Source: Escherichia phage phiAPCEc03
Length of the DNA: 64,000 nucleotides
Sequence record: NC_047754.1
Reading direction: 5' to 3' (one strand)
The position numbers and the translations under genes are program-made. Below are positions 31,745-53,629 of the stretch, in pieces (position 1 is the first letter of the stretch; the number at the start of each line of letters is the position of its first letter). Under the pieces are notes generated by a model. The model worked only from the letters and a program-made list of their open reading frames with translations. It was not told the origin of the DNA and did not search any database.

Positions 31745-32606
31745 CTAAAATTTCAATACGTTTTGCTAACATATCAATCTCTTCTTTATTTAAGTCACCA
31801 GGGTCTTTACCTTCAGGCAGAAGAAAGTTAGCAACTACAGGTGTTAAACGCGTTTTTGTACGAATTAGCTTGGCCAATGCTTGTGCAGCTTTATTACCAG
31901 AAGCATCATTATCTAGTAAGATAACAACAACTTTTACACCGGCAATAATATAAGGACTGAACTTATCTGCAATGTTATCTGAAGTAAACTGATGTGTACC
32001 AAAGCAGCAGGAAGCATAGTCTATACCATTATCCTCTAGATTCAGCATATCAAAGATACCTTCAACTAGAATAAGAACTGGAGTATTATATCGTACAGGA
32101 AAAATTGGTGGTGAAACTTGTTTTGGTTTTACTAAGTATTTAGGAGGGGCAGAACTGTTTATAGAACGACCCAAAAATAGGATATTGCGTCCAACAGCAT
32201 CTGTGATTGGGAATACAATTCTGCCTTCCCAGTCTGCTTGGTGTTGGAAAGCAAAATATTTCTTCAAGGTCTTAGAACTTATGCCTCGGAAATCACCTTC
32301 GAAAAGGTAAGCAGATTCAGGAATTGCAAGATTCGTTGATCCATTCCTAATCTCTGAAATCTTTTTACGTACTTGCGATAGCCTTGGGGACTGTCGGTAC
32401 TGAGTCTCATTAAAATAATGGTAAATGCTCGGTATACCTTTACCGAATCCACAACTCAAGCAGTGCATAATACCTGTTTCAGGGTCAATACGCAAACTTG
32501 GGTGTTTATCGTCATGATCTGGATTGAGACAACATATAAGAATATCCCCGCCTGTATCCTTGTACTCAATTCCTTTTAGATCAAGTAACTCTGTTATTCT
32601 ACTCAT
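31716..32606 (-). CDS. DNA primase (DnaG-like: zinc finger plus TOPRIM)
   Basis: N-terminal CCLNPDHDDKHPS...CLSCGFGKG zinc-binding motif; TOPRIM-like VLILVEGIFD and VVILLDNDASG. Confidence 0.8.
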   Translation of the reverse strand: MSRITELLDLKGIEYKDTGGDILICCLNPDHDDKHPSLRIDPETGIMHCLSCGFGKGIPSIYHYFNETQYRQSPRLSQVRKKISEIRNGSTNLAIPESAYLFEGDFRGISSKTLKKYFAFQHQADWEGRIVFPITDAVGRNILFLGRSINSSAPPKYLVKPKQVSPPIFPVRYNTPVLILVEGIFDMLNLEDNGIDYASCCFGTHQFTSDNIADKFSPYIIAGVKVVVILLDNDASGNKAAQALAKLIRTKTRLTPVVANFLLPEGKDPGDLNKEEIDMLAKRIEILVAESLKDLV

Positions 32607-33136
32607 GAATTTAACTCCTCCAGTGAAGGATAATTAGATGTATCAAAAATTTCTATAACAGCACGTTCTCCATGTAACTTAGTCCTTAATATATTTGCTG
32701 AATTTACAGCTAGCTCTAGCTCTTCATACTTAAATCTGCCACCATTTTTAAGAGTGCTATTAGAGTCTCTTACTTGAACTCTCCATCTTTGTTTTTCTAT
32801 ATCCCAAGCAACTCCCAAATATCCAGACTTACTACATGCGGTTTTATTTCTACTATTTTCCTGGGCTGTGGCGTCTCTTAGATTACACCATCGGTTATCA
32901 AAGGGTATTCTATTTACATGGTCTACTTTTTCAGGTAACGTGTTTTCCATAAATAGGAAGGCCATACGATGGGCTTTATAATCACTACCATCTATACCGA
33001 TAATTATATAACCGTTTGAATCCTTTCTAGTTACTATACTCCCGGCTTTCTGGTTGCCTCTAGATACTTTTCTAATAAACTCCCCAGTCTCTGGGGAGTA
33101 GTCAAACAGTTCTTTTAGTCGTTCCTGTGTTATCAT
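32603..33136 (-). CDS. HNH homing endonuclease with AP2-like DNA-binding domain
   Basis: HNH motif VDHVNRIPFDNRWCNLRDATAQEN; AP2-like GYLGVAWDIEKQRWRVQV; sits between helicase and primase genes. Confidence 0.8.
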   Translation of the reverse strand: MITQERLKELFDYSPETGEFIRKVSRGNQKAGSIVTRKDSNGYIIIGIDGSDYKAHRMAFLFMENTLPEKVDHVNRIPFDNRWCNLRDATAQENSRNKTACSKSGYLGVAWDIEKQRWRVQVRDSNSTLKNGGRFKYEELELAVNSANILRTKLHGERAVIEIFDTSNYPSLEELNS

Positions 33137-34605
33137 ATATCGCTGGCCTGTTCACCTGTTGAATTTTCAGCTTTGTCTTTCTTAGCACGTTTAGATTGAG
33201 CTGGCTTATCCTTCTCAATAGGGATAACGAACTCAGCTTCCATTTGAGATATATCTTCCATTGCTAGGTTGGTAGTGTTATCCATCCGCAGGGTTTCCCA
33301 GTTCATTTTAGGCATAAACTTCACGCTATCAGAAGAACGAGTCTTAACGAAGTCAAACATAATAGCACCTTGACCATTATCAGCTTTTGCAGCATTAAGA
33401 TTAGCAGCCATGTCTGCGGAATCAAGAATCCCCTTTGACATACGTGTTCTACCATCTTGATCAATCTGGTAAGGAGCTACACCAGCCACGTTATGTTTCT
33501 GGCAGATAGATTTGAAAGACGAGCTAACAACCATCTGTTCTTTCCAGTCATACATATCAATGGTTTTAGAGTCTGGAAGTCGGGTTTGGTTAATATAGTC
33601 CAGTAAAGCTACTGTAACTTTATCCCCATATCTAGCAACTAATTTATTTAATTCTACGTCAACTGTTGTAATAGACAGCTCAGGATCATAAACAATAATC
33701 ATAGGAGTATGTAGCTCATATCCTTCTATTAGCTTACTTTCCATATCGTAGAAATCACTCATCTTAGCCATTGTGTACTGTTTAACGAAATTGTCGAAAA
33801 GCTCTTCACCACCGTTAAACATCCTAGCTCTAGTTCTGGCTAATCTCAACAGAGCTGCACCTTCTAGAGTATTATTACGCATTGCTAGTGCTGATACACC
33901 AGCTAGCATAGCTAGATTACGTCTAAATACTTCATGTTCTTTCATCTCAATTGAGAAGTATGGAGCAATATCTCCATTCAAATATTGCTGAACCTGTATG
34001 TTTGAACAGATAATGGATTTACCAGTACCACGCCAACCACCAAGCAGTAACGTTTCTGTGCGAGCTAAACCAATTTGAGCGTCGAACTCATTACAAATAC
34101 CAAGAGCGATTAAGTTCAGTTTGGTATCTTCTTCTCTCTGGAAAATACGCATGTTATCTGCGTTGAATACTTTTCCAGTATTCGTTACTTTCTCTTCTAA
34201 TTTTAAGTGAAGGGAGGCAACTCGGTTAAGAATTTCTCCCTGATCCAGCATTGTTAAATCTTGAAGCACGTCTGTTTCTAGAAGCTTCAGGAATAAATCC
34301 TGTGTATACTCGGCCTCTAGGACTTCAAGTGCCTGTTCCATGCTAACTTCTGGAATTTGAGTGTTAGCTAAGACGACTAGAGCTTGAGAAAGGCGGGCGT
34401 TCCTATTAGCTTCAAGCATAAGTGCGTCAATGGACGGCATTGTGTTATATTTTTTATAATAATTCTGGACGGCTTGGTAAATTGAGGAGAAAGCGTCATT
34501 AAAATGATCTTTATGCAGTTTTGAGAATGTTTCCAATGCTATTTGCTTCTGTTCGGAAGCTAGAAGCATCTTCAACACTACAGCTTGCACGTTAAACAAG
34601 GTCAT
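33133..34605 (-). CDS. DnaB-like replicative DNA helicase
   Basis: Walker A GGWRGTGKS in a RecA-like C-terminal half; start set at ATG 34605 with SD AGGAGA (the ORF-track start at 34656 lies upstream of it). Confidence 0.75.
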   Translation of the reverse strand: MTLFNVQAVVLKMLLASEQKQIALETFSKLHKDHFNDAFSSIYQAVQNYYKKYNTMPSIDALMLEANRNARLSQALVVLANTQIPEVSMEQALEVLEAEYTQDLFLKLLETDVLQDLTMLDQGEILNRVASLHLKLEEKVTNTGKVFNADNMRIFQREEDTKLNLIALGICNEFDAQIGLARTETLLLGGWRGTGKSIICSNIQVQQYLNGDIAPYFSIEMKEHEVFRRNLAMLAGVSALAMRNNTLEGAALLRLARTRARMFNGGEELFDNFVKQYTMAKMSDFYDMESKLIEGYELHTPMIIVYDPELSITTVDVELNKLVARYGDKVTVALLDYINQTRLPDSKTIDMYDWKEQMVVSSSFKSICQKHNVAGVAPYQIDQDGRTRMSKGILDSADMAANLNAAKADNGQGAIMFDFVKTRSSDSVKFMPKMNWETLRMDNTTNLAMEDISQMEAEFVIPIEKDKPAQSKRAKKDKAENSTGEQASDI

Positions 34606-34635
34606 TCTCCTTTGCACGCTTTCGTGCCTTCTAAA

Positions 34636-34680
34636 TGCAAAAAGGGGAAGGAGCATAGCCCCCTCCCCTTAGGTTTAATT
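34636..34680 (-). terminator. Rho-independent terminator (- strand)
   Basis: GC-rich hairpin GGGGAGGGGGCTATGCTCCTTCCCC followed by T-run on - strand. Confidence 0.6.
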
Positions 34681-34687
34681 TACCAGA

Positions 34688-35455
34688 TTATTCAGCAGCC
34701 GCAGCTTTTGCATCCAGTTTAGCACGCTTAGCGGCACCATCATAGTCCTTAGCAACCAGACCACGACGAGACAGCATAGATTTAACACCGCGCTCAGATT
34801 TACCAGTTTTCTCAGCGATCTCAGCAACAGTCATGTTAACCAGATCCAGACCTTCTAACAGATCTTCACGAGTTTTAGCACTTGAGGTTTCCTGTACCGG
34901 CATAGCAGCGATACGACCTTCACGAAGCAGGCTCAGAGCTTTACCACGGATCTGCTTAATATTGCGACCGAAGTGAGCAGCGATAGCTTCAATAGTAGCA
35001 CCAGCAACAACCTGATTAACAAAATCAGTTTCTTCATCCGGAGTGAAGGAACGAACAGCAGCAGCTTTTTCGGTTGGCTTAACAGAAGCGGTCATTTCCA
35101 GACTCAGGATCTTACCCTGTACCTGTTTAGCACCGAACTGACCACCAGCTACAGCAGCAGCGATTTCAGCATAGGTATACTGACCAGCATGAGCGTTCAG
35201 GAAATCAACCAGTTCAGCTTCCTGCTCAGGAGTCCATGGGGATTTCTGTACTTCGTTGGCTTTCTGTACTTCAAAACCTTCTTTACGCAGTTTAGAACCA
35301 ACAGAGCGGGCAGTAACATCTTTGCCAGTTTCAGCAGCCAGTTCAGCAGCGATAGCAGCTACTTGTTCTTGAGAGATTACAGAAACACCCAGAGCAGTGG
35401 CTTTTGCTTTCAGAGACTCGGTTACACCTTCTACGTTCCAGTTCAGTTTAGACAT
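34688..35455 (-). CDS. Ala-rich DNA-binding protein (possibly T5 D5-like)
   Basis: 255 aa with internally repeated segments (AEIAAAVAG / VAEIAEKTGKSERGVKSMLSRRG); most GC-rich, codon-biased gene of the early block. Confidence 0.45.
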   Translation of the reverse strand: MSKLNWNVEGVTESLKAKATALGVSVISQEQVAAIAAELAAETGKDVTARSVGSKLRKEGFEVQKANEVQKSPWTPEQEAELVDFLNAHAGQYTYAEIAAAVAGGQFGAKQVQGKILSLEMTASVKPTEKAAAVRSFTPDEETDFVNQVVAGATIEAIAAHFGRNIKQIRGKALSLLREGRIAAMPVQETSSAKTREDLLEGLDLVNMTVAEIAEKTGKSERGVKSMLSRRGLVAKDYDGAAKRAKLDAKAAAAE

Positions 35456-36218
35456 TATTATTTTTCTCCAATAGTTCTTTAATCGACAGGATTTCTATCC
35501 CATTCGTTTCGGCTTTCTTATAAGATGAGGAAGAACGTTTTGATTCATCCTCACAGATCAGGTATTTGACATCTTTGGTAACGGATTTCTTAACCGTATA
35601 TCCTAGACCTTCTAAATAGTTTGTTGCATCCGTTCTATTTGCAAAGTCTTGCAAAGATCCGGTAATACATACCGCGATTCCATTTGGCTGGGCAACTAAA
35701 TCATCAGTAACGACGGTTTTAGCTTTAGCACCAGTTGAGAATTTCCACGGTAATTCGATAACATCCTTGCCTTGTGGGGAATTTAGCCAGGCTTTATAGT
35801 TTTCTCCAGCCTTGCCGTCAGCCTTCACATCGTGGAAGCTAGTGCAATTTTGGGATAATTTCTTTGCTGCAACCTCTCCGATTAGAGGGATTCCTAAAGA
35901 ACCGAGAACTGAACCAAAGTCAATGTCTCCGCGAACTTTAGTATTTAATTCGCTAATTAACTTAGCGGCAACCTTGCTACCCACGGCTCTAACCAAATCT
36001 TCTTCGGTTAGGTAAAATAGTTCTGAAATCTTCGTCAGCTCCAGCTTCTCAATAGTTTTTGGACCAAAGCCCTTTAACTTAATTTTTGTACAGAAGTTCT
36101 CAATTAACTTACTTGATTGCGCTGGACAGTTGGACTTATTCCGACAGAATAATTGTCCGTTGACAAGATCTAGCTTAGAACCACAAGAGGGACATTGTGT
36201 TGGAATTTCGATTTTCAT
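35448..36218 (-). CDS. ligB: NAD-dependent DNA ligase, subunit B (Zn finger, HhH, BRCT)
   Basis: Cys4 motif CPSCGSKL...CRNKSNCPAQ, HhH-like GFGPKTIEKL, C-terminal BRCT-like VCITGSL...YLICED; ATG at 36218 with SD AAGGAAG. Confidence 0.8.
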   Translation of the reverse strand: MKIEIPTQCPSCGSKLDLVNGQLFCRNKSNCPAQSSKLIENFCTKIKLKGFGPKTIEKLELTKISELFYLTEEDLVRAVGSKVAAKLISELNTKVRGDIDFGSVLGSLGIPLIGEVAAKKLSQNCTSFHDVKADGKAGENYKAWLNSPQGKDVIELPWKFSTGAKAKTVVTDDLVAQPNGIAVCITGSLQDFANRTDATNYLEGLGYTVKKSVTKDVKYLICEDESKRSSSSYKKAETNGIEILSIKELLEKNNNV

Positions 36219-36248
36219 CAAAGTTCTTCCTTATCAATTTATATAAAT

Positions 36249-36277
36249 ATTATAGCAAGTATTTAAGCATTTAGCAA
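36249..36277 (-). promoter_or_regulatory. T5-type early promoter (- strand) for ligB
   Basis: Complement of TATAAT at 36249-36254, 17-bp spacer, complement of TTGCTA at 36272-36277. Confidence 0.65.
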
Positions 36278-36420
36278 CTACAATTTTAACTAACTTTGCT
36301 TACCCTCGCCATAACTTTCTATCCCTCAACTGAATGATAATAGTATATACCTAAGCGGCGAAAATGTCAATAACCACTTTATAATTCCGATATGGTAGAT
36401 GGGTAGCAAAGGGTTATGTA

Positions 36421-37392
36421 TTAATCGTATACTCGCTCTACTATACACGGGATTACACCACCAGCACGAATTACTCGAATCTGGCAACCGATCTCTAGAT
36501 CAAGAGAGTTAATATAATCAACGTTATTAAGAGTCGCCTTAACAATTGTAGCATCATCAATAATTACCGGTTCGAAATAACCAACTGGAGTTACTTTACC
36601 AGAGGCCCCTACCTGCCATTCAACTTTAGTAAGAGTTGTAATCTCGCCTTCTTCATCCTCTTTAATAGCGAAGGCTCCACGAGGGAATTTATTAGTCCAG
36701 CCCTCTCGGAAGAATTTGTTGTTATCATTAATACGAACAACTTTACCGTCCGTCGGAATCCATTTAAAGAAGGAACGCACATTAACAACTGTTAAGAAGT
36801 TCTCATTCTCTAGCCAAAGCATATCTTTTAAATATGCTTCTGTAATACCTACAGATTCAGCAGAACACTGGATACCGTATGCGACGAAGATTAAACCACC
36901 TTCCCCTATACGTTGTACGAAATCATCGCTATCTTTGAGGTTAATAGCACCAGAGGCAAAGTTACGTTTATTTTCTACTTCTTTTGTAATTAGAACTTCA
37001 CCAGTGATTTGAGTAGGTACTTTTTGGGAAATCTTTTGAGGGATGTTCAGCAATCTTACGTTGCTTGTGACATCATTCCCTAGAATACCATTACCACGAG
37101 TTAGTGCTTGAACAAATTCGCCATTAATATATAACAGAGAAATCGCACAACCATCTAACTTATCAGTTTCTACCTGACCTAACGGGTTGAACGGAGGTTT
37201 ATCTCCACGATTATAATAAACTTTCTGTAAAGAATACATACGATACAGATGTGGAATATCACCCTTAGGCCCGATCTCTTCTTCTAATGGAAATCTTTTA
37301 ATCAGACGATCATATTCTTCGTCAGAGATTAAAGACATACCTTGATAATATGCTTCTTGACAGCGTTTAATAAAGTCTTTTACATTAGTCAT
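36421..37392 (-). CDS. ligA: NAD-dependent DNA ligase, subunit A (adenylation and OB domains)
   Basis: N-terminal Ia-like region; adenylation motif KLDGCAIS (KxDG). Confidence 0.8.
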   Translation of the reverse strand: MTNVKDFIKRCQEAYYQGMSLISDEEYDRLIKRFPLEEEIGPKGDIPHLYRMYSLQKVYYNRGDKPPFNPLGQVETDKLDGCAISLLYINGEFVQALTRGNGILGNDVTSNVRLLNIPQKISQKVPTQITGEVLITKEVENKRNFASGAINLKDSDDFVQRIGEGGLIFVAYGIQCSAESVGITEAYLKDMLWLENENFLTVVNVRSFFKWIPTDGKVVRINDNNKFFREGWTNKFPRGAFAIKEDEEGEITTLTKVEWQVGASGKVTPVGYFEPVIIDDATIVKATLNNVDYINSLDLEIGCQIRVIRAGGVIPCIVERVYD

Positions 37393-37423
37393 TTATTTAT
37401 ATCTCTCATCAATTTATATAAAT

Positions 37424-37452
37424 ATTATATAATAAAACTGAGTTGAAAGCAA
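37424..37452 (-). promoter_or_regulatory. T5-type early promoter (- strand) for ligA
   Basis: Complement of TATAAT at 37424-37429, 17-bp spacer, complement of TTGCTT at 37447-37452. Confidence 0.65.
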
Positions 37453-37479
37453 ATACATTTATAAAGAAAAAGCCAAGAA

Positions 37480-37788
37480 CTAGGCATTCTTGGCTTTGAG
37501 TTCTTCAGCTCGTTTCTGTACTTCATGTAAAACCTCAGATTCGCTAAGAATCTGTGTAAACGCATAGAAAAGCTGTGATGTTGTTTCTAGGGTGTAAGGA
37601 AAAGAGAAGCCAGATTTCGTTGGAAACCATTCATCATTAATATCAAGAAGCCAGTAACGAATACCCATGTATAGATTCCCACGAAATTCAGATACTGTTA
37701 ATCTTACTTGTTCTCCCTCCTTCTCCCAAAGTATGATGGACTGGTCATCAACGTGTCCTTCATAGTTTTGATTTACCTGTTCGCTCAT
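37480..37788 (-). CDS. PC4/YdbC-like putative ssDNA-binding protein
   Basis: 102 aa; motif RLTVSEFRGNLYMGIRYWL...WFPTKSGFSF resembles PC4-type domains. Confidence 0.45.
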   Translation of the reverse strand: MSEQVNQNYEGHVDDQSIILWEKEGEQVRLTVSEFRGNLYMGIRYWLLDINDEWFPTKSGFSFPYTLETTSQLFYAFTQILSESEVLHEVQKRAEELKAKNA

Positions 37789-37814
37789 TTACATATTCCA
37801 AATACACAAAAAGC

Positions 37815-37840
37815 CCCATATAGGGGCTAATTGGTTTCTT
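37815..37840 (-). terminator. Rho-independent terminator (- strand)
   Basis: Hairpin AGCCCC-ATATA-GGGGCT with T-run on - strand. Confidence 0.65.
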
Positions 37841-39709: not shown

Positions 39710-39717
39710 ATAAATTT

Positions 39718-39951
39718 TTACGATTCCTTGAGCAAAGAAGAAAGTTCAGCATATACTTTATCTAACTCAAACCCTATGCGAAGAGATACGTTAGTCCTCC
39801 GTTGTTTAAGTAACCACTCGGATATGTTAGGGATGCCAGCTAATCTATGTGGTACCACCCTACATAGCTTTTCCGAAGTATCATAAACAGGAACTTTACG
39901 TTCTTTTACTGGAAACTTCCTTGTTTCCCATTTTTTATTCTTCACTGTCAT
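39718..39951 (-). CDS. Hypothetical protein (start uncertain)
   Basis: ORF 39718..40059 overlaps HNH gene 3' end; shortened to internal ATG. Confidence 0.3.
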   Translation of the reverse strand: MTVKNKKWETRKFPVKERKVPVYDTSEKLCRVVPHRLAGIPNISEWLLKQRRTNVSLRIGFELDKVYAELSSLLKES

Positions 39952-40465
39952 ATCTCTCCGAGGGATTAAATTCACCAAACAGCTCTTTAACTCCCCTAAG
40001 GTATAGCTGATGGGCTTCTTCCGGGGTATCTCGTCTACCAAAAATATGTTGCTTTCCATCGCAGTAAGCGTAGGCCATATACCTATTACCTCGTTTTACA
40101 ACTCCAGTGAATCCGGTAGAATTAGTAGAACACTTCTTATTCTTTCCATTTTCGGAATAGGTAGCCTTACGTAAATTATCCCACAAGTTGTTTAAACTAT
40201 CACCGTCTTTATGGTCAATAGTTTTATCTCCAGGATCTTCACCTGTCTTTATAAACCAGATTATTCTATGGGCTAAGTAAGCTGTCCGCTCCCCATTTAT
40301 CATAAACTCTAGCTGTCTCCCAGTTTTCATTTTGGAGCCCGCTACTTTTCCCTTCCTTGGGCCAGATAACCAAATTAAGTCCCCAGTACTTTCGTCATAT
40401 CTAAGCTTTTCTAGGATAAATGCCATAGGAGGCATTGGTTTATGCATCTTCATTAGTTGCTCCAA
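39935..40465 (-). CDS. HNH homing endonuclease with AP2-like domain
   Basis: HNH motif IDHKDGDSLNNLWDNLRKATYSEN; AP2-like TGFTGVVKRGNRYMAYAYCDG. Confidence 0.75.
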   Translation of the reverse strand: MEQLMKMHKPMPPMAFILEKLRYDESTGDLIWLSGPRKGKVAGSKMKTGRQLEFMINGERTAYLAHRIIWFIKTGEDPGDKTIDHKDGDSLNNLWDNLRKATYSENGKNKKCSTNSTGFTGVVKRGNRYMAYAYCDGKQHIFGRRDTPEEAHQLYLRGVKELFGEFNPSERYDSEE

Positions 40466-43304
40466 GTTCGGACAGTACTTCTTCTGCCATAGCCTTCTCT
40501 TCCTCTGTCATGAATTTGAAAGGAATTGGCATACACTCGATTTTACAATAGGTTCTGTACCAGTCTACGATATTTTCAGTGTTCATATCCTTACCAATAC
40601 CCATCATACCAAGATACATTCTAGCATATTTTGGGTTAGCACTCTGACCTGTTTTAAGGAAGAAATCTTTCTTCTTACCTTTCAGAGCTTCTATGAATGG
40701 TTTGATAGTAACATTTGAACACTTCTTAATATCTTCCCAGAACATCTCGTGCATCTTATGGAAGAATGCAGCTCGATCATTAGGTTTATCTTTGATATAT
40801 TGTTCAACATGCTCAACTGTTACATCTTTAATAGACTCAAGATGATAGTAGCGAACAAGAAGTAGTTTAGCTTCGTACGCATCTGCATGGCGTGGAGCAC
40901 AATAATCAGGAGTTGAATATAAAATAGCTTTGATTCGCTCTTCCGTATACTCTTTTCCTGCACCTTCGATAGTTCCCCAGCTTTCACTGAAAATATCAAT
41001 AGTTGCACCCTGATCAAGCAAGTAATAACGTAAAGTACTAGTATAGTTCCTAGACTCCAGCTCCCTACGACGTGCGTATAATTGCTGTGCTAACTCCAGC
41101 CAACCTTCATCAATGTTATATTGTTCAGAACCTGCGGAGAATCCACTCGTAGATTTATCAATGAAATAATAAATGTTCTGAGCGCCACGGTCGCGCCTGA
41201 TTGCTTGGAAACGCATGTTTGGCGCTTGGTTACTAGTTCTAGTAATAACGAATACGTTATCAAAGTAGTTAAAGTCAACTCCACTCGTTACGGATGGACT
41301 ACATAATAAGCAATCAATTTGTTGATCAATTAGCTCATTAGTTGTGTAATCCAGAATACGTCTAATATCCACATCAGACGTAGAGTTTGAGTGGATTTCC
41401 TTAACTAACGCACCCGTATTACGACGCAACGCCATGCCCTTCTCATTCAGTTCATCTGGTCCACAGTCAGATACTAGGATAGATTTCTCACCCATCTCTA
41501 GAGATGTCTGAAGTGCAACCCAAATACTGGATTCATCAGGAAACTCATAAGCATGAGCTTTTGACAGCATTCTACGGTGATGATTATAAAATGCAACCGG
41601 TTTATCAAACTCAATCAAGGAACCATATGCTTCAATTGTTTCTGCACTAATATCACCATCAGATAATATAATGATTTTTGCAGTTGCAAGAATGTCCCGA
41701 AGAACCTGAATACATTCACGACGTTGTTTAACAACCGGGGCGAATAATAGGTCATTCATTACAGCGTCACATTCATCGATAAAGATTGCATCAATTTGAC
41801 CAATAAAACTCTTGAACTTATGCAAAGAGTGAATAGTTGTGGACATACGGTCAATAGCACCACGCTTAAAATTGAGCATATCTACAGACTTATCATATTG
41901 TCCTGCACTAAATTTCTTGGCATTTGAAGATACCAGTGCTCTAGTATTGGTAATTGCTAAGAAATTACCTTTAATAACTCCTGAGTCTAACCAACGCACA
42001 ACCGCCGTGGTTTTACCTGTACCTAGACTTGCTTTTACAAAAGTCATATAACCTTCTGGTGGCACAGTATTTAATTTCAAGAAGTTATCAGTTTCTAGAG
42101 AATTAGTTTCTAGCTTTTTAAGTGGAATACCTTTTAAAACATCTGGTATATCACGTTTAGAATTATTAACAAACGCTTTCAGAGCCTGCTTACGACCGTT
42201 GTTAAAATAATCTTGAATATTACGACTATTATCTTTAGTTGCAATATACTCAGATAAAGCTGGGCGGATCTCCTTCTCTAGCCAACCAAAATCTACACCA
42301 TCCTCTAGTGCTCGGTGATAGAGTTTAGGAATAATACGTAGATATACACCATCCTCAGCTTCTTCTAACTCGCTGATGGTTTCTTCTACTTTATCAGAGG
42401 CAGCCTTTTTACCTTTAATTTGATCGAGTAAGGAGTAGAACTCCTCTTTAAACTCTCCTCTAGTTGTTTCATAGTCAACTAGATTATTGGGTAAATTTAC
42501 TTTTGAGCCTTTAACAAATACCAGACGTGAAGCACCCTCCGCTTTAAACGGATCTACTATACCATCAGTAAATAAAGGATCTGCAAAGTAATGGAGCTGT
42601 ACGGAAGAGTAATAAGCTAAGTCGGCAATATCAAAGCCATACTTTTGTCTACTACTTTCGTTGATAGATGTAAATAAGAACTTGATTTGACCCTGAGTTA
42701 CTTTAACATTAGATTCTAGTATTAAGTGCATTCGGATACCTGGTTTTAGCCCAGCCGAAGACGATGCATGAGCAATAAACCCTGCATCAAGAGGAAACAT
42801 GTCCTCACTAATACTATTTAACATTCTAATAATATGTCGAGCCATGCCAACAAGATCAAACTTGTTACAACCACCTGTATCTACAATACCATCCACGTCC
42901 ATTGCAATTATATGACTTGGGTTAGATACATTAAAGTTGCCCTTCTTACGTCGCACATTATTTTTAGGTGCAAGACATCGACCTCGTACCGCAACGATAT
43001 GAGGGTCAGACGTTAAACGTCTCATAAGAGGAAGCATTTCTACTAGGGTTTGAGGATCAACTTCATCAATTACATCAAACTTGAAGGGCATTGAAGCTGG
43101 TTTACCTTCAGGATGCTTTGAGGAAAATCTTTTAGCAAAAAGATAGTCTTCTGCTTTAACTTCTCGCCAATTGCCTGTGGCTAAATCGCGATGAAATCCT
43201 GCATGACCTTGTAGGATTGAGAACACAACAATACTCCTGTGTTGGAAATGAAATAAGTTTTCTTTAGGACTATTCAGAAAGAATAGAACAACTGTTACTG
43301 TCAA
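40440..43304 (-). CDS. Large replication protein with P-loop NTPase/helicase domain (start uncertain: TTG at 43304 or ATG at 43091)
   Basis: Walker A SLGTGKTT and Walker B IFIDECD in central region; 954 aa as listed. Confidence 0.55.
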   Translation of the reverse strand: MTVTVVLFFLNSPKENLFHFQHRSIVVFSILQGHAGFHRDLATGNWREVKAEDYLFAKRFSSKHPEGKPASMPFKFDVIDEVDPQTLVEMLPLMRRLTSDPHIVAVRGRCLAPKNNVRRKKGNFNVSNPSHIIAMDVDGIVDTGGCNKFDLVGMARHIIRMLNSISEDMFPLDAGFIAHASSSAGLKPGIRMHLILESNVKVTQGQIKFLFTSINESSRQKYGFDIADLAYYSSVQLHYFADPLFTDGIVDPFKAEGASRLVFVKGSKVNLPNNLVDYETTRGEFKEEFYSLLDQIKGKKAASDKVEETISELEEAEDGVYLRIIPKLYHRALEDGVDFGWLEKEIRPALSEYIATKDNSRNIQDYFNNGRKQALKAFVNNSKRDIPDVLKGIPLKKLETNSLETDNFLKLNTVPPEGYMTFVKASLGTGKTTAVVRWLDSGVIKGNFLAITNTRALVSSNAKKFSAGQYDKSVDMLNFKRGAIDRMSTTIHSLHKFKSFIGQIDAIFIDECDAVMNDLLFAPVVKQRRECIQVLRDILATAKIIILSDGDISAETIEAYGSLIEFDKPVAFYNHHRRMLSKAHAYEFPDESSIWVALQTSLEMGEKSILVSDCGPDELNEKGMALRRNTGALVKEIHSNSTSDVDIRRILDYTTNELIDQQIDCLLCSPSVTSGVDFNYFDNVFVITRTSNQAPNMRFQAIRRDRGAQNIYYFIDKSTSGFSAGSEQYNIDEGWLELAQQLYARRRELESRNYTSTLRYYLLDQGATIDIFSESWGTIEGAGKEYTEERIKAILYSTPDYCAPRHADAYEAKLLLVRYYHLESIKDVTVEHVEQYIKDKPNDRAAFFHKMHEMFWEDIKKCSNVTIKPFIEALKGKKKDFFLKTGQSANPKYARMYLGMMGIGKDMNTENIVDWYRTYCKIECMPIPFKFMTEEEKAMAEEVLSELGATNEDA

Positions 43305-47294: not shown

Positions 47295-47299
47295 ATAAA

Positions 47300-47336
47300 A
47301 TAAAAGCCAGGTCGACTAGCAACCCGGCTGATTAGC
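47300..47336 (-). terminator. Probable terminator downstream of nrdD (- strand)
   Basis: Hairpin GCCGGG-N13-CCTGGC with T-run on - strand. Confidence 0.5.
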
Positions 47337-49211
47337 TTATTTAGCTCGAATATCCTGATGCTTCACTCTGCCCATCACCTCGTGCTGTTTGCCGGGGTTA
47401 AATGGACGAGCACCCGGATTTCCAAGATACCCACAAACTCTACGAGTTACTTCAAGAGTTTCGGGGTCATGATTACCACAGATAGGGCACTTAAATCCAT
47501 CTTCGGATGCTATTGTTTCACCTAAGAATCCACATTTACCACAAGAATCCACTGGAGTATTAATACCGAAGTAATGAACCTTACTAGCAGCATAATTAAT
47601 AACCCATTCCAGTGCATCTGGGAATCGTTTCATATCCGGTAGTTCTACATAGGAAATGCACCCACCAGAAGCAATCGGAGTAAAGTTAGATTCATAATCA
47701 AATTTTACGTTAGGAGCAACTTTACGTTCCACATCAAGGTGATGAGAGTTAGTGTAGTATCCTTTGGACAGAATATCTTCATGCTCCGAGAAATATTCAC
47801 GGTCTAGACGACAAAAACGGTCACATAGGGATTCTGATGGTGTAGCATACAGGCTATAACCTAACTTAGTTTCTTCCTTCTTCTGATCGACTCTATCCCG
47901 CATGTACTGCAATACACGCTGAACAAACTTGATGCAGGTCTCGGACATTGTGTCTACATCTTTGCCAAACATGAACTGTAGCATTTCATGGCAACCAATA
48001 TACCCTAGAGATACAGAAGCACGGTTATAGAAGTGATCGAATACATATTCATCAGGCTCCAAGCGCAGTCCAAAGGCTCCTGACATATAGAGGATGGGCG
48101 CAGCTTTAGCTTGAATGTATTTTAAGCGATCAACTCTCCACTCCAATGCTTTTAACGCTGTATCCACACGTAGCTCAAGCAAATCAAAGAATAGATCAAT
48201 ATTTCCTTCAGCTTCGATAGCAATTCTAGGCAAGTTTACAGAAACAACACCTAAGTTATTACGACCGGCAGTTTCACCATCTTCTGTAGCAGCTAGGAAT
48301 GAACGGCAGCCCATAGAAACTTTATAGTCGCCAGTAACTTCCACAACCTTGTCATAGCTGATATAATCTGGATACATACGTTCAGACGTACATTTCATAG
48401 CTAACTTCTTGATGTCATAATTAACATCTCCTGGTTTCATGTTAACGCCATCACGAAGCACAAATACTAGTTTCGGGAAGATAGCTGTACGTTTATTGAT
48501 ACCTAAACCATCCATACGTACTTTTAGTATTGCTTTCTGTACTAGACGTGCCTCCCAAGAAGTTCCTAGACCAAAACCAAAGGTAATAAATGGACTCTGA
48601 CCATTAGAGTTGAACATGGTATTGATTTCATATTCTAAACCCTGACAAGCGTCATAGACTTCTTTCTCAGTCATCTCCGTAGCCATTACGGATGCTTTGG
48701 CTTCATCCTTAGTCCAACGTTTTGCAAACGCATGATTTTTGTCATAGGATTTACGAACATAAGGGGCTAATACTTCATCAAGGCGGTCTACAGAAGTACC
48801 ACCATACTGATGGGAGCTAACTTGAGTGATAATCTGAGCAGTAATAGCCGCCGCAGTAGTGATAGAGTTTGGAGTGCTAATTTCAGCATTACCAACCTTC
48901 ATACCATTCTTCAACATATCTTCCAGAGCTACCAGACAACAGTTAGTCATGCCTAATGCAGCATAATCAGCATCATGGAAATGAATATCCCCAATCATAT
49001 GAGCATTTCGAATCTGAATTGGCATTTCTTCTAGAATCAGATACTTACTCAATTCACCTGCAAGCATATCCCTTTGTGTAGGGAAACGTTCTGAGGGTTT
49101 ATTGGCATTATTAAACAGCAGCTCTTCATCTGCTGACCCTTCGATAATCTCTTTGCAGTTTCTAATTAACGCCTGCATTTCTTTATACTTTAGTTCTTCA
49201 TTGCGATTCAT
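47337..49211 (-). CDS. nrdD: Anaerobic ribonucleoside-triphosphate reductase (class III)
   Basis: 624 aa; C-terminal Zn site CGKCGF...CPICGNHD and glycyl-radical motif RVCGYLG. Confidence 0.9.
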   Translation of the reverse strand: MNRNEELKYKEMQALIRNCKEIIEGSADEELLFNNANKPSERFPTQRDMLAGELSKYLILEEMPIQIRNAHMIGDIHFHDADYAALGMTNCCLVALEDMLKNGMKVGNAEISTPNSITTAAAITAQIITQVSSHQYGGTSVDRLDEVLAPYVRKSYDKNHAFAKRWTKDEAKASVMATEMTEKEVYDACQGLEYEINTMFNSNGQSPFITFGFGLGTSWEARLVQKAILKVRMDGLGINKRTAIFPKLVFVLRDGVNMKPGDVNYDIKKLAMKCTSERMYPDYISYDKVVEVTGDYKVSMGCRSFLAATEDGETAGRNNLGVVSVNLPRIAIEAEGNIDLFFDLLELRVDTALKALEWRVDRLKYIQAKAAPILYMSGAFGLRLEPDEYVFDHFYNRASVSLGYIGCHEMLQFMFGKDVDTMSETCIKFVQRVLQYMRDRVDQKKEETKLGYSLYATPSESLCDRFCRLDREYFSEHEDILSKGYYTNSHHLDVERKVAPNVKFDYESNFTPIASGGCISYVELPDMKRFPDALEWVINYAASKVHYFGINTPVDSCGKCGFLGETIASEDGFKCPICGNHDPETLEVTRRVCGYLGNPGARPFNPGKQHEVMGRVKHQDIRAK

Positions 49212-49240
49212 TATACTCTCCTTCTCTAACTAAGACTACT

Positions 49241-49269
49241 ATTATAACTCATTCGAGGGCGGATGTCAA
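49241..49269 (-). promoter_or_regulatory. Promoter for nrdD (- strand)
   Basis: Complement of TATAAT at 49241-49246, 17-bp spacer, complement of consensus TTGACA at 49264-49269. Confidence 0.65.
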
Positions 49270-49320
49270 CAATATTTTACTATAAAGTTCTGTAACATGA
49301 TCTGAGTCAAAAAATTTTAT

Positions 49321-49349
49321 TTGCCAATCTCTATTAAAAATTGTATAAT
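49321..49349 (+). promoter_or_regulatory. T5-type early promoter (+ strand), distal
   Basis: TTGCCA at 49321-49326, 17-bp spacer, TATAAT at 49344-49349. Confidence 0.6.
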
Positions 49350-49461
49350 CACGCACTCGTGTACGCGATATAAAATGATTATCTAGTATCACACATCTCA
49401 CGTTAAAAGCAAGCAAATTTTTTATTTAAATGCAATATCATAGGCTTATTTAAAATTGTAG

Positions 49462-49490
49462 TTGCTTTTTACTGTATATATTGGTATAAT
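49462..49490 (+). promoter_or_regulatory. T5-type early promoter (+ strand) for phoH
   Basis: TTGCTT at 49462-49467, 17-bp spacer, TATAAT at 49485-49490. Confidence 0.65.
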
Positions 49491-49554
49491 ATATTTGTAA
49501 GTTGATAAACAAGATCTTTTTGTTGATCCTCTGTTAGCGAAGTACACTATAGGA

Positions 49555-50316
49555 GTGTTATTTATGGGAAAAGCACGTCAAAAAAGAGAGAACCGCAATG
49601 GTTCAAGAAAGCGTGGCAACAAATATGAGAACAACGTAATTCAGGCTGATTTTTCTAATGATTACGCTAATCCAGTTGCTAAATCCCTAGTAGGTAAAAA
49701 CCGCGAGCAAAAATCATATATCAATATGATCAAGAACAACACAGTGACCGTGGGTATCGGTGAGCCGGGTACTGGTAAAACCTTTATTCCGTCCGTTCTT
49801 GCAGCTCAGGAACTCGTAGACATTCACTCAGATATTGAGCAAGTGATTCTCGTACGTCCTAATGAACCTCTAGGTAAGTCTCTTGGTATGCTTCCTGGTG
49901 ATCTAGCGGAAAAGCTAGAGCCTTGGTTGGAGCCAATAGCTGATGGTATGAAATGGGCCATCGGCGATCATGCATATAAAGGATATGTCGAACGTCAGAA
50001 AATTAAATTTTTGGCTGTCGAACATGCTCGTGGCAGAACTTTCAACAACTCCTATGTAATTGTCGATGAAGCTCAGAATATTTCCGTTGAGGCAATGATT
50101 TGTCTCCTAACTCGTGTAGGACAAGACTGCCGTTTAATTATCTGCGGAGATATAGCTCAGAAAGACATTAAAGGTGACTCAGGTCTAGCACTCCTTATGG
50201 AAGTCTATGAAAAATACGAAAATGCCCCATTCTCAATGATCGAATTGGTTGATAACGTTCGTTCTGTTGAGTCTAAAGCATTCTATGATATTTTTAAAGA
50301 CATGGGGAAGGTGTAA
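49555..50316 (+). CDS. phoH: PhoH-like ATPase
   Basis: 253 aa; Walker A GEPGTGKT, Walker B-like VIVDEAQN. Confidence 0.85.
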   Translation: MLFMGKARQKRENRNGSRKRGNKYENNVIQADFSNDYANPVAKSLVGKNREQKSYINMIKNNTVTVGIGEPGTGKTFIPSVLAAQELVDIHSDIEQVILVRPNEPLGKSLGMLPGDLAEKLEPWLEPIADGMKWAIGDHAYKGYVERQKIKFLAVEHARGRTFNNSYVIVDEAQNISVEAMICLLTRVGQDCRLIICGDIAQKDIKGDSGLALLMEVYEKYENAPFSMIELVDNVRSVESKAFYDIFKDMGKV

Positions 50317-50317
50317 T

Positions 50318-50539
50318 ATGGGAAACGTCGTTCATCTGAGCCGTAAAACTAAAATACATCGTACCTCACTGAGTGCTGCTAATATGATTACACGTAAAGA
50401 AGGGGAAGAAAGTCCTAAGACAACCCTAGCGTGGAAAATTGTAACCTCAAATCCAAATAAACCATTCAATTATAACGAGCTGAGCACCTCTATAGATATT
50501 CTATTAAAAGAAGTAGCTAGAGCTAAAGTAATTGAATAA
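50318..50539 (+). CDS. Hypothetical small protein
   Basis: ATG at 50318 overlaps phoH stop (TAATATG); 73 aa. Confidence 0.45.
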   Translation: MGNVVHLSRKTKIHRTSLSAANMITRKEGEESPKTTLAWKIVTSNPNKPFNYNELSTSIDILLKEVARAKVIE

Positions 50540-50614
50540 GCTAAAAAGCTAGACTGGTAGTATACAGGGCCTGGGTATGAAAATACTCGGGCCTTTTCTA
50601 TCAGAAAATTTTAT

Positions 50615-50643
50615 TTGCCTAATGACCAATAATAATGTAGAAT
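50615..50643 (+). promoter_or_regulatory. Promoter for nrdA
   Basis: TTGCCT at 50615-50620, 17-bp spacer, TAGAAT at 50638-50643. Confidence 0.55.
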
Positions 50644-50681
50644 ATTCCTTAAATCCTGATAACTATAAAAAGGAAAGCCAA

Positions 50682-53012
50682 ATGAGCCATCGCATTGAAA
50701 AAGTAATTAAACGTGACGGTACTGTAGAAGACTTTGCTCCTGAAAAACTCAATGGTTGGGCAGAGTATGGTTGCAAAACAGTTGATGTAAGTTGGTCAGC
50801 CATTACTATGGCTGCTCAAAAAACTCTGCCTAAAGGGGTTGTAGATTCCGACACTCTGATGGATGCATTAATTAAAGCTGCTGAAAGTCTTATTAAAGAT
50901 AATCCAGCATACGATGTGCCAGCAAAGGAATTACGTCTTGCGCAAATGCGTAAGCGCCTTTATGACTCTTTCGAACCACCTTCTCTACGCTTCTTCCATG
51001 ATCATATGGTTAGTGTAGGTGCATGGGAAGACATGAGTGCATGGATTACCGATGAGCAGTTTGAGGCTTTGAATCAGGTTATTGACCATGATCGTGACCG
51101 TCTTTTCACTAGTGGAGGACTGAAACAATTCTTTGATAAGTATTCTCGCCGTAATATAGCAACTGGAGAAATTTACGAAACTCCGCAATTCGCCTATATG
51201 GGTATGGCAATGGCGATGTTATCTCAACCTAACTGGACAATTCTAGATGCAATCGACCTCTACAATGCAATGTCGCTCCACAAAATCAACGTTCCTACGC
51301 CGCCATTGGTTGGCTTGCGCTCTAGTGATCGTGGATTTGCTAGTTGTTGCCTCGTTGATTCCACTGACACATTGGATTCAATCGACACGGCCGAACACAT
51401 CGTCTTCAAAATGGTTGCAGCCAGAGCGGGAATCGGGTATCATCTTGAAAGCCGATCAATTGCTGATCCGGTGCGAAATGGGGCATTCCCGCATTCCGGA
51501 AAACTGCCATATTATCGACACATTGACCGCTCAGTAAAGGCCAATACTCAGCAAACTCGTGGTGGTTCTGCTACAGTGTCTTATCCATACTTTGATCCTG
51601 AGATCATTCAATTGATGCAGGTTAAGCAACAACGTGCTACAGATGAGAATAAAATCGATAAGATGGATTATTCTCTGAGCTTCAACAATCTTTTACTAAA
51701 ACGTTATCTGAAAAATGAAGATATTACGCTAATGTCATACTTCTATGCTCCAGAAGTTCATGAAGCGTTTTATAGTGATGACGAGGCTAAATTTGAAGAA
51801 ATCTATGTGGCAGCGGAGAAACGTGTGGCATCTCTTACAAAGATCGACCACGAAGGAAAAACAGTTCCAGCAGCTCCTAAAGTCTCTGCAAAAGAAATCC
51901 TAGATACTTGGCTACGTATCCGCATGGAAACAGGACGTATGTATGCACACCACATTGCAGAATCTAATCGTCATGGTAACTTCCTTGACCAGATTCGTAT
52001 GACTAACCTTTGTGTTGAAATTACTCAACCTACACGTCCATTCCATCACATTACAGAACTGTATAAGACAAAAGAGCAGCTTGATCAAATGAAGCCGGAG
52101 GATATTGGTGAAGTATCTCTGTGTAACTTAGGGGGTGTTGTACTTGGACGCATGGAATCTCTGGCTGAGTGGGAAAAAACTTGCTACATCCTTCTGAAAT
52201 TCGTTGATACAATTATCGAAATTCAGGATTATCCGTTCCCAACTATGGAATATACGGCTAAGAAACGTCGTAATGTTGGTATTGGCCTAATGAACGCAGC
52301 AGGTGCAATGGCCGCAGAAGGTCTGGCTTATGAAGGTATTGAAGCCCGTAACTGGATTCACCGTGAGGCTGAAAAACTGTCCTACTTCCTGCATAAAGCC
52401 TCTGTACGCCTAGCTAAAGAACAGGGTGCATGTGAGTGGTTCGATCGTACTAAACCATCTAAAGGAATTCTGGTAATCGACACGTACAAGAAAACTGTTG
52501 ATGAACTGGTATCCGTAGGTCTAGAAATGGATTGGGAGTCTCTACGTGCAGATATTTTGAAATATGGTATGCGTAACTCTGTTCTGACTGCTCAGATGCC
52601 GGGAGAAAGTTCTTCTGTTCTGTTAGGTGTTACTAACTCTATCGAACCACCACGTAAGATTGTATCTATCAAGGGTAGTGCAGTGAATAAAGTAATTGCA
52701 ATTGCTCCAGGTGCAACCGATTGGGAAACGTTAATGAGCTATAAACTGGCTTATGATGTAGATCGTATCGAGTGGATCAAATGGGTAGCAACTATGCAGA
52801 AATTCTTCAGTCAGTCTATCAGTACGAATATGTACTATGACTACACCAAGTTTGAGAATGAAATCATTCCTGGCCCAGTAGTAGTTCGTGATTTCATGAC
52901 TGCTGTTAAGTATGGGTGGAAAACTTGGTATTATGCTAACTTCAACACTGCAAATGGTGGAGGTGCTGGAGAAGAAGCAGCCGGTTGTGCATCCGGTGGT
53001 TGTACTATTTAA
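50682..53012 (+). CDS. nrdA: Ribonucleotide reductase class Ia, large subunit
   Basis: ATP-cone N-terminus (HRIEKVIKRDGTVEDF), catalytic core with NLCVEI and C-terminal Cys pair CASGGC; start set at ATG 50682 with SD AAGGAAAG. Confidence 0.9.
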   Translation: MSHRIEKVIKRDGTVEDFAPEKLNGWAEYGCKTVDVSWSAITMAAQKTLPKGVVDSDTLMDALIKAAESLIKDNPAYDVPAKELRLAQMRKRLYDSFEPPSLRFFHDHMVSVGAWEDMSAWITDEQFEALNQVIDHDRDRLFTSGGLKQFFDKYSRRNIATGEIYETPQFAYMGMAMAMLSQPNWTILDAIDLYNAMSLHKINVPTPPLVGLRSSDRGFASCCLVDSTDTLDSIDTAEHIVFKMVAARAGIGYHLESRSIADPVRNGAFPHSGKLPYYRHIDRSVKANTQQTRGGSATVSYPYFDPEIIQLMQVKQQRATDENKIDKMDYSLSFNNLLLKRYLKNEDITLMSYFYAPEVHEAFYSDDEAKFEEIYVAAEKRVASLTKIDHEGKTVPAAPKVSAKEILDTWLRIRMETGRMYAHHIAESNRHGNFLDQIRMTNLCVEITQPTRPFHHITELYKTKEQLDQMKPEDIGEVSLCNLGGVVLGRMESLAEWEKTCYILLKFVDTIIEIQDYPFPTMEYTAKKRRNVGIGLMNAAGAMAAEGLAYEGIEARNWIHREAEKLSYFLHKASVRLAKEQGACEWFDRTKPSKGILVIDTYKKTVDELVSVGLEMDWESLRADILKYGMRNSVLTAQMPGESSSVLLGVTNSIEPPRKIVSIKGSAVNKVIAIAPGATDWETLMSYKLAYDVDRIEWIKWVATMQKFFSQSISTNMYYDYTKFENEIIPGPVVVRDFMTAVKYGWKTWYYANFNTANGGGAGEEAAGCASGGCTI

Positions 53013-53020
53013 TAAAAACA

Positions 53021-53047
53021 AGGAGATCTTCGGGTCTCCTTTTTCTT
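53021..53047 (+). terminator. Rho-independent terminator after nrdA
   Basis: Hairpin GGAGA-TCTTCGGG-TCTCC followed by TTTTTCTTT. Confidence 0.75.
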
Positions 53048-53058
53048 TGAAATTTTAC

Positions 53059-53087
53059 TTGCTAATCGCTATCAGATTTGCTATAAT
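53059..53087 (+). promoter_or_regulatory. T5-type early promoter
   Basis: TTGCTA at 53059-53064, 17-bp spacer, TATAAT at 53082-53087. Confidence 0.7.
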
Positions 53088-53113
53088 ATCTCCATTAGTT
53101 AAGGAGATTAGTT

Positions 53114-53629
53114 TTGATAACACAAGATGAATTAAAAAGGATTCTGGAGTATAATCCAGATGAAGGAACATTTACTTGGTTAAATAACCAAGAAGTACAC
53201 AATAAAGTAAGAGGACTACCTGCTGGTTGTTTAAAACCACACTCAGTAGACCCTAACCGAAAAGACTTAGTGATACAAATCAAGGGTAAGAAGTACCCTG
53301 CACAAAATATTGCTTTCCTGTACATGACAGGAAACTTACCTAAAGTTATGGTTGACCATATAGATGGAGATTCACTAAACTATAAGTGGACTAACCTAAG
53401 AGAAGCAGACTGGCAGTTAAATAGTCAAAATAGAAAAACCAGTAAAAACAATATATTGGGTACTAAGAATATTCGGAAGAAAGGGTCTGGATTTCAAGTT
53501 AGAAAATCTATTAACGGAAAAGAATACGTGAAAACTCTTCCAACTCTAGAAGAGGCAATAGAGTATCGAGATTCTTTAATCCTCTCTATAACCAAAGATC
53601 CAACACTACTTAGAAACACAGATAAATAG
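53114..53629 (+). CDS. HNH homing endonuclease with AP2-like domain, inserted between nrdA and nrdB
   Basis: HNH motif VDHIDGDSLNYKWTNLREADWQLN; AP2-like GSGFQVRKSINGKEYV. Confidence 0.8.
   Translation: MITQDELKRILEYNPDEGTFTWLNNQEVHNKVRGLPAGCLKPHSVDPNRKDLVIQIKGKKYPAQNIAFLYMTGNLPKVMVDHIDGDSLNYKWTNLREADWQLNSQNRKTSKNNILGTKNIRKKGSGFQVRKSINGKEYVKTLPTLEEAIEYRDSLILSITKDPTLLRNTDK

Follow-up and report, generated by a model that had tools for sequence, protein, structure and literature searches.

The genome of Escherichia phage phiAPCEc03 (NC_047754.1) carries three similar open reading frames (ORFs) among its genes for DNA replication and nucleotide metabolism, which raises the question of what these ORFs are, whether they are mobile and how long they have resided at their present positions. 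The question was addressed in a stretch of 64,000 nucleotides (nt) of this genome, hereafter the window, for which an initial annotation had proposed three paralogous HNH-AP2 homing endonucleases that probably mark recent mobile insertions. Judged from its sequence, the source phage is a Tequintavirus and a close relative of T5, and the DNA flanking the three ORFs is 95-98% identical to T5 and other Tequintavirus genomes. The three ORFs are very probably free-standing homing endonuclease genes (HEGs) of the I-HmuI-like HNH_3/AP2 family and orthologues of hegJ, hegI and hegH of T5. The finding of the initial annotation is correct but already known, the T5 heg genes having been annotated since the T5 genome records.

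Identity and family of the three ORFs

The ORFs at 32603-33136, 39935-40465 and 53114-53629 all exist in the window with uninterrupted translation, and are assigned as follows, with protein lengths in amino acids (aa).

32603-33136, minus strand: gene 1, predicted HNH-AP2 HEG, 177 aa, orthologue of T5 hegJ/P-TflX (T5.120)
39935-40453, minus strand: gene 2, predicted HNH-AP2 HEG, 172 aa from the ATG at 40453, orthologue of T5 hegI/P-TflIX (T5.109)
53114-53629, plus strand: gene 3, predicted HNH-AP2 HEG, 171 aa with a TTG start, orthologue of T5 hegH/P-TflVIII (T5.095)

The start of gene 2 is most likely the ATG at 40453, which gives a protein of 172 aa as in T5 hegI (annotated as 519 bp) and a 14-nt overlap with the upstream gene, and not the TTG at 40465 chosen by the ORF lister, which sits 12 nt upstream of the ATG annotated in T5. 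Gene 3 is preceded by a ribosome-binding site, AAGGAG, at 53101-53106. A 76-aa antisense ORF inside gene 3 (53095-53325, minus strand) is probably spurious. The proteins are 98% (hegJ), 99% (hegI) and 99% (hegH) identical to those of T5 at the amino-acid level, and the protein of gene 3 is 94-99% identical to its orthologues in T5, DT571/2 and NR01. At the nucleotide level the gene 1 region shows 95.9% identity to the T5 hegJ region and 99% to that of HdH2.

Pairwise BLASTP comparison of the three proteins gave 31-36% identity with expectation values (E) of 5.9e-19, 2.3e-12 and 1.8e-7, and the proposed paralogy is therefore well above chance. All three proteins exceed the gathering cut-off of Pfam HNH_3 (PF13392; 24.8 bits), with scores of 32.6 bits for protein 1 (E 6e-8), 47.5 bits for protein 2 (E 1.4e-12) and 31.5 bits for protein 3 (E 1.3e-7), and all three match PHROG 99, 'HNH endonuclease' (E 2e-57, 8e-54 and 1.4e-45, respectively). 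A hidden Markov model of the family finds exactly three members in the window, namely genes 1-3. The residue set of the beta-beta-alpha-metal nucleases (D-H ... N-L-R ... N..N) is present in each protein: D72, H73, N85, L86, R87, N94 and N97 (protein 1 numbering) are invariant among the three, and across 69 homologues H73 is invariant and D72, N85, N94 and N97 are at least 90% conserved. The counterparts in I-HmuI are presumably H75, N87 and N96, going by the profile alignment. From these sequences, site-specific, metal-dependent nicking or cleavage by the three proteins is predicted, and the endonuclease and homing activities of the hegJ, hegI and hegH proteins of this phage are putative.

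The HNH-AP2 architecture was borne out by a family profile and by AlphaFold models of proteins 1 and 3, and for protein 2 by alignment. The profile, built from 69 sequences, contains all three window proteins aligned through the AP2 region. Its positions 30-117 match I-HmuI (1u3e) at E 2e-8, and its positions 103-161 match the AP2/ERF domains of plant transcription factors, with E 5e-11 for WRI1 (7wq5), 1.4e-6 for TEM1 (7et4) and 6e-3 for AtERF1 (1gcc), ERF96 also being a weaker match. Among the 116 homologues listed, about 40 carry precomputed matches to both PF00847 and PF13392. The window proteins themselves, whose AP2 regions have diverged too far, do not reach the Pfam AP2 (PF00847) cut-off of 33.3 bits: a score of 15 bits (E 0.03) was obtained for protein 1, and proteins 2 and 3 gave no match to this family. 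Searching PDB sequences with protein 1 alone returned chance matches only.

The AlphaFold (AF2) model of protein 1 has a pLDDT (predicted local distance difference test) of 95.7 and a C-terminal AP2 fold. The best PDB matches of this model are AP2 domains, with 1gcc at a probability of 1.00, a template-modelling (TM) score of 0.75 and a root-mean-square deviation (rmsd) of 2.1 A; for its nuclease core only I-PpoI was listed, at a probability of 0.72. The model of protein 3 (pLDDT 90.8) has I-HmuI as its top PDB match (Foldseek probability 0.99) and matches the TEM1 AP2 domain 7et4 at a probability of 0.93, with an rmsd of 1.6 A over 44 columns. The nuclease core is thus modelled with the beta-beta-alpha fold, and the C-terminal domain is predicted by both profile and fold to be an AP2 domain, in which a three-stranded sheet packs on a helix. 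HNH_3-AP2 is a described architecture, placed in group 2 of the His-Me finger classification (PMC5714182, citing Magnani 2004 and Wessler 2005). In fold searches with both models the C-terminal domain is also weakly similar to the arm-type DNA-binding domains of the Tn916 and HPI integrases, which fits a three-stranded-sheet DNA-binding fold common to those families.

Presence and absence at the three sites

Gene 1 lies between the primase and helicase genes (site 1), gene 2 beside the gene for a putative origin-binding protein (site 2) and gene 3 between nrdA and nrdB (site 3); the positions that the initial annotation gave for the first and third are confirmed by orthology of the neighbours to T5. 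Presence and absence were scored in GenBank phage records, RefSeq duplicates counted, using each gene with 400 bp on either side as query; wider BLAST queries could not tell presence from absence, as coverage remained above 80% even where the gene was missing. The window-type gene was found in 59 of 439 records at site 1, 22 of ~435 T5-like records at site 2 and 73 of 435 at site 3. Most of the remaining records matched both flanks with exactly 530, 502 or 519 bp missing. Natural relatives with an empty site include JLBYU40 and DT57C at site 1, EC122 and oldekolle at site 2, and HdH2 and EASG3 at site 3. Each window-type gene is therefore present in a minority of records and faces an exact empty site in most others, which upholds the view of these genes as mobile insertions; the presence of all three at the same loci in every relative is clearly not what the comparison returned.

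The same picture was obtained from IMG/VR. With the window counted as present beside 26-27 loci at sites 1 and 2, the gene was present in 9 and the site empty in 18 at site 1, and present in 3 and empty in 24 at site 2, where one further genome carries an alternative gene. At site 3 the gene was present in 5 and the site empty in 15, with alternative genes in another 7. The three sites assort independently among 27 IMG/VR genomes: 12 carry none of the three genes, several carry one or two, and T5 alone carries all three. Locus polymorphism with a precise empty site, by which a free-standing HEG is recognised, was thus found at all three sites.

Sequence differences linked to the genes

The flanks of genomes carrying each gene were compared with those of empty-site genomes, identity being measured to the window. 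An ungapped comparison fails at indels of the relatives, beyond ~50 nt on the left of site 3 and beyond ~300 nt on the left of site 2, and the results given here come from the bins next to the junctions and, at sites 2 and 3, from the right flank. The following stretches differ with the presence of the gene.

53613-53762, plus strand: hegH-linked block, nrdB ribosome-binding region and first ~125 nt of nrdB
40459-40525, minus strand: hegI-linked block, last ~65 nt of the T5.108 'origin binding protein' gene
32535-32606, minus strand: hegJ-linked stretch, first ~72 nt of the primase gene

At site 3, 32 linked positions fall within 150 nt and none from 201 to 800 nt, and identity of the block to the window is 95-98% in carriers and 68-81% in empty genomes. 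The hegH-linked changes in nrdB are mainly synonymous, with three amino-acid replacements, which fits the import of a diverged tract, and the block is a candidate co-conversion tract or cleavage-resistant target allele. At site 2, 15 linked differences lie within 50 nt of the junction, where empty genomes are 63-70% identical to the window compared with 94-96% for those with hegI, and the linked signal is at background by 100-150 nt. At site 1, all 18 of the 18 empty genomes share one nearly invariant haplotype and the genomes with hegJ have several different ones. Past ~150 nt, similarity to the window is the same for carriers as for non-carriers; the linkage effect is therefore local and does not reflect overall relatedness. 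Flanking sequence inherited with the gene, a candidate for the target-site footprints which the initial annotation had suggested looking for beside each ORF, is thus clear at sites 2 and 3 and weak at site 1, and this evidence is correlative. The comparison supports a clustering of linked substitutions beside the junctions such as co-conversion would leave.

Two relatives have flanks that do not follow the gene beside them. SP01 carries gp075, which is 36% identical to gene 3 of the window, and yet has the hegH-type haplotype in the first ~125 nt of nrdB, which suggests that one endonuclease gene was replaced by another on the same flank. In DT571/2 (IMG/VR 2974666860) site 2 is empty and its flank, corresponding to window ~40478-40520, is chimeric, being of the hegI type from ~60 to 20 nt upstream of the junction and of the empty type at the junction itself. 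This chimeric flank may be the footprint of gene loss or partial conversion.

Age and selection

Orthologous alleles of the three genes differ by a synonymous divergence (dS) of 0.13-0.76, and the ratio of nonsynonymous to synonymous divergence (dN/dS) is 0.03-0.12 in all the more diverged pairs. Nucleotide identity to T5 inside the three genes is 93-97%; hegJ is 93% identical to its T5 counterpart, compared with 97-99% for the helicase and primase sequence on either side of it. The insertions had been described as probably recent, a view that does not hold, given a dS of 0.36-0.76 between alleles of one gene from different phages, at a dN/dS of 0.03-0.12, and the presence of the same three genes in T5. 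The genes are therefore long-standing and under purifying selection and, judged by this divergence, are old residents of the T5-like gene pool that have been kept functional.

Neighbouring genes and junctions

Neighbours were assigned by orthology to the T5 annotation, and the signals between nrdA and nrdB by a pattern scan.

31716-32606, minus strand: DNA primase, downstream neighbour of gene 1, orthologue of T5 pri (T5.121)
33133-34656, minus strand: DnaB-like replicative helicase D6, upstream neighbour of gene 1, orthologue of T5 D6 (T5.119)
39718-39951, minus strand: 77-aa hypothetical ORF (T5.110), downstream neighbour of gene 2, upstream of D2
40440-43304, minus strand: 'replication origin binding'/helicase-like protein, upstream neighbour of gene 2, orthologue of T5.108
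50577-53012, plus strand: nrdA, ribonucleotide reductase large subunit
53020-53087, plus strand: nrdA terminator hairpin (53020-53041) with T-run, and nrdB promoter (TTGCTA at 53059, N17, TG-TATAAT to 53087)
53638-54783, plus strand: nrdB, ribonucleotide reductase small subunit

The description of the ORFs as inserted in replication and nucleotide-metabolism genes stands in part: they sit amid such genes, but lie between them in a manner that preserves the operons, and hegI alone touches coding sequence. Each HEG is a single-gene cassette of ~0.5 kb within an early-gene operon, in the same orientation as its neighbours and without a promoter of its own. The inserts are not marked as foreign by GC content, with a mild exception at site 3 (0.34 versus 0.42 in the flanks).

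At site 1, the segment missing from empty relatives is ~32607-33136 (530 bp), with the 4-nt ATGA leaving its boundary ambiguous. In occupied genomes an ATGA stands at each end of the insert. At one the stop codon of the helicase gene overlaps the start of the HNH gene, and at the other the HNH stop codon overlaps the start of the primase gene; helicase, HNH and primase therefore stay translationally coupled. Empty genomes read ...GATAT-ATGA-GTAGAATAACAG, with a single ATGA in which the helicase stop overlaps the primase start. The helicase D6 protein is 97-100% identical in the 27 IMG/VR genomes sampled.

At site 2, the missing segment is 39957-40458 (502 bp). The final ~5 codons of the T5.108 orthologue are supplanted by the insert, which changes the C-terminus of that protein from ..GARNDSEE-stop to ..GATNEDA-stop, and gene 2 itself ends on the old 3' end of T5.108 (..YDSEE-stop versus ..NDSEE-stop). 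The ATG of the 77-aa ORF falls within the last 17 nt of gene 2, so that the 17-nt overlap with this ORF is kept. The start of the T5.108 orthologue is uncertain, the protein having 928 aa in the T5 annotation and 954 aa from the TTG taken by the ORF lister.

At site 3, the missing segment is 53094-53612 (519 bp). The insert separates the nrdB promoter from the ribosome-binding site of nrdB and carries its own AAGGAG and TTG start. Empty-site genomes have the same terminator and promoter, unchanged, directly upstream of nrdB, and a promoter between nrdA and nrdB is annotated in T5 and AKFV33. The pre-existing nrdB promoter now drives hegH and then nrdB.

Elsewhere in the window, two adjacent ORFs of 257 and 323 aa (35448-36221 and 36421-37392, both minus strand) agree in size and position with T5 ligB and ligA; in T5 the NAD-dependent DNA ligase is split over this pair of genes, between which promoters lie.

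Alternative occupants and allelic lineages

Other genes occupy the same sites in some relatives. At site 3, other HNH genes are found in AKFV33 (orf096) and SP01 (gp075) and as SLAM_phiST45_044; diverged alleles occur at site 1 in T5_ev219 and DaisyDussoix; and other genes lie close to site 2 in phA11 and JLBYU43. The nrdA-nrdB spacer has held at least four HNH-AP2 lineages, which are less than 45% identical to one another and all match the family profile. Across relatives, members of the family are found at a minimum of eight positions in the 21.5 kb around the helicase gene, always on the strand of their neighbours.

The site 1 gene has at least three allelic lineages with 64-71% amino-acid identity (T5_ev219, DaisyDussoix and NR01). 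Their first ~33 residues and nucleotide 3' ends are near-identical and their middle is diverged, and the alleles therefore look mosaic. SHSML-45 (9337-10005) and VSe12 (9364-10005) have an extra HNH-AP2 ORF directly upstream of the helicase gene, at a point corresponding to the D5/helicase boundary at window ~34600-34690, where the window has no insert. The helicase match in these two phages begins only at residue 20, and the insertion has therefore remodelled the 5' end of the helicase gene. A further indel hotspot is seen in DaisyDussoix, SP15, slur09, GSP044 and JLBYU43, where an extra segment of ~387 bp between the DNA polymerase and primase genes, at a position equivalent to window ~31654-31715, holds a 330-bp hypothetical ORF (bas31_0033, DaisyDussoix 658-987); this segment is absent from the window and from T5.

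Comparison with known systems

T5 hegJ, hegI and hegH are direct orthologues of genes 1, 2 and 3, at the same three positions with identical neighbours and junctions, and the differences between T5 and the window are allelic only. T5 hegH overlaps the nrdB start by read-through, whereas hegH of the window has a TAG 9 nt earlier. The T5 heg genes are called homing endonucleases because other T5 HNH enzymes show site-specific activity. Those enzymes, among them F-TflIV, have had such activity demonstrated and are encoded in the tRNA-gene region, outside the window; F-TflIV belongs to a different His-Me group (PMC5714182) and is set apart from the window proteins by this classification. A homing endonuclease between nrdA and nrdB was noted earlier in AKFV33 (PMC3326045), and homing endonucleases are described as the chief cause of difference between T5-like genomes (PMC10644984; see also PMC12639943).

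I-HmuI (1u3e), the intron-encoded HNH nicking HEG of Bacillus phage SPO1, belongs to the same His-Me finger subgroup (HNH_3/group 2) and shares the layout of an N-terminal beta region followed by an HNH core. It differs in being intron-encoded and in having a helical C-terminal DNA-binding part (NUMOD/helix-turn-helix-like), whereas the genes of the window are free-standing and carry AP2. The AP2 region is shared with the plant AP2/ERF factors (Magnani et al. 2004; Wessler 2005), which no longer have the nuclease and serve as transcription factors.

T4 MobE is a promoterless free-standing HNH HEG between nrdA and nrdB that nicks the 5' region of T2 nrdB, with a recombination point in the first 189 nt of nrdB (PMC2790892). 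The hegH gene resembles it in position and in being promoterless, and the linked nrdB block of ~150 nt matches the extent of the MobE footprint. MobE, however, belongs to His-Me group 1 and not to HNH_3 (PMC5714182), is without AP2 and comes from a different phage family, and the likeness of the two sites is convergent, the resemblance being one of function and position only. Membership of the window proteins in the T4 Mob type (group 1 HNH, PF01844-like) was rejected, HNH_3 being the sole Pfam nuclease family matched at E values up to 0.1.

Proposed mechanism and alternative explanations

Intronless homing is the best-supported reading of what is observed here, which comprises the family membership and architecture of the proteins, the insertion polymorphism and its junctions, the linked flanks and the purifying selection; within it catalytic activity, target location, strand specificity and conversion itself are predicted steps. 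The endonuclease would be expressed from the early operon, and homing would take place on co-infection of a HEG-carrying phage with a related phage whose site is empty. Binding of a specific sequence within the adjoining gene of the empty allele would fall to the AP2 domain, probably jointly with the beta-rich domain at the N-terminus. The best target candidates lie in nrdB within its first ~150 nt, in the origin-binding-protein gene within its last ~65 nt and in the primase gene within its first ~70 nt. The HNH beta-beta-alpha-metal site would then nick or cut the target close to the insertion point, and recombination-dependent repair would copy the HEG and a short flanking stretch from the HEG-carrying genome, which would itself be protected by the sequence differences in its flank. 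Repeated cycles in a mostly empty population would result in purifying selection on the endonucleases.

Several points weigh against this reading. The flank blocks show linkage and not cleavage, and the target sites are read from linked polymorphism, whereas recombination breakpoints or hitch-hiking could give such blocks too. Because the compared genomes are related, the linked positions do not count as separate events. At site 1 there are five strongly linked positions in 100 nt, a weak signal in comparison with sites 2 and 3. The helix preceding the HNH core has Q-N in protein 3 where proteins 1 and 2 have H-R. In addition, the T5 annotation itself labels the proteins 'putative' (P-Tfl), and cleavage, nicking and super-Mendelian inheritance are likewise putative.

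The alternative with the greatest claim to attention, although an unlikely one, is that the genes are kept mainly as weapons of interference against co-infecting relatives that lack them, the benefit going to the host phage and to linked markers and the spread of the gene being secondary. Strong purifying selection despite long residence, location beside essential replication and nucleotide-synthesis genes, and the supplanting of several lineages by one another at one site are all in keeping with it. Goodrich-Blair and Shub reportedly described in 1996 how competition between the intron HNH nickases of SPO1 and SP82 favours flanking markers. Interference works by the same molecular mechanism as homing and is not exclusive of it, however, and an occupancy as low as 5-17% of records speaks against a strong general fitness benefit. 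It is improbable that the genes are instead decaying or inactive relics of past invasions, retained by linkage to essential genes. HEGs classically degenerate after fixation, and the activity of hegH, hegI and hegJ is putative only; but every carrier sampled has an intact ORF, the catalytic residues do not vary, and dN/dS stays at 0.03-0.12 at dS values of up to 0.76. These elements are moreover far from fixation, and selection for homing should therefore persist.

Two other roles were considered and are both very improbable. One is that at least one of the three is the enzyme that makes the single-strand nicks in packaged T5 DNA, given that I-HmuI-like HNH enzymes are typically nickases (PMC5714182, PMC2790892) and that the virion DNA of T5-like phages contains nicks (PMC10644984). 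The same paper presents nicked DNA as general to T5-like phages, whereas none of the three genes is present in 12 of the 27 sampled genomes and each of them is missing from most GenBank relatives. A literature search found no link between hegH, hegI or hegJ and the nicks in T5 virion DNA, and this role was rejected on the two grounds together, the absence of the genes from most relatives and the lack of such a link in the literature. The other role is that of AP2-type DNA-binding regulators of the adjoining replication and nrd genes, with a vestigial nuclease domain, for which the C-terminal AP2 DNA-binding fold and the positions inside operons would be suited. Strict conservation of the HNH catalytic residues speaks against a vestigial nuclease, the genes are dispensable in most relatives whose neighbour genes are otherwise the same, and insertion polymorphism is the signature of a mobile element and not of a core regulator.

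Homing may also have a history of turnover at these sites. We tentatively propose, as a possibility somewhat short of even chances, that the nrdA-nrdB spacer, and to a lesser degree the other two sites, is contested by at least four deeply diverged HNH-AP2 lineages that repeatedly supplant one another, each with its own cleavage-resistant nrdB 5' haplotype, and that mosaic flanks such as that of SP01 and chimeric empty sites such as that of DT571/2 at site 2 are footprints of serial invasion, replacement and loss. If true, T5-like phages would have arrived convergently at a counterpart of the T4 MobE/nrdB system, in another phage family and by way of another HNH subfamily.

Implications for T5-like phages

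For annotation, the three ORFs are to be labelled as orthologues of hegJ, hegI and hegH, and treated as accessory selfish elements and not as core replication genes. HEGs mark likely recombination boundaries in T5-like genomes, which is relevant to comparing and engineering therapeutic Tequintavirus isolates. The anatomy of the junctions and the linked flanks provide candidate target regions for characterising new, sequence-specific HNH-AP2 nickases. The current understanding of these elements is unchanged, and what would have most to add is a population-level account of serial HNH-AP2 lineage replacement at nrdA-nrdB.

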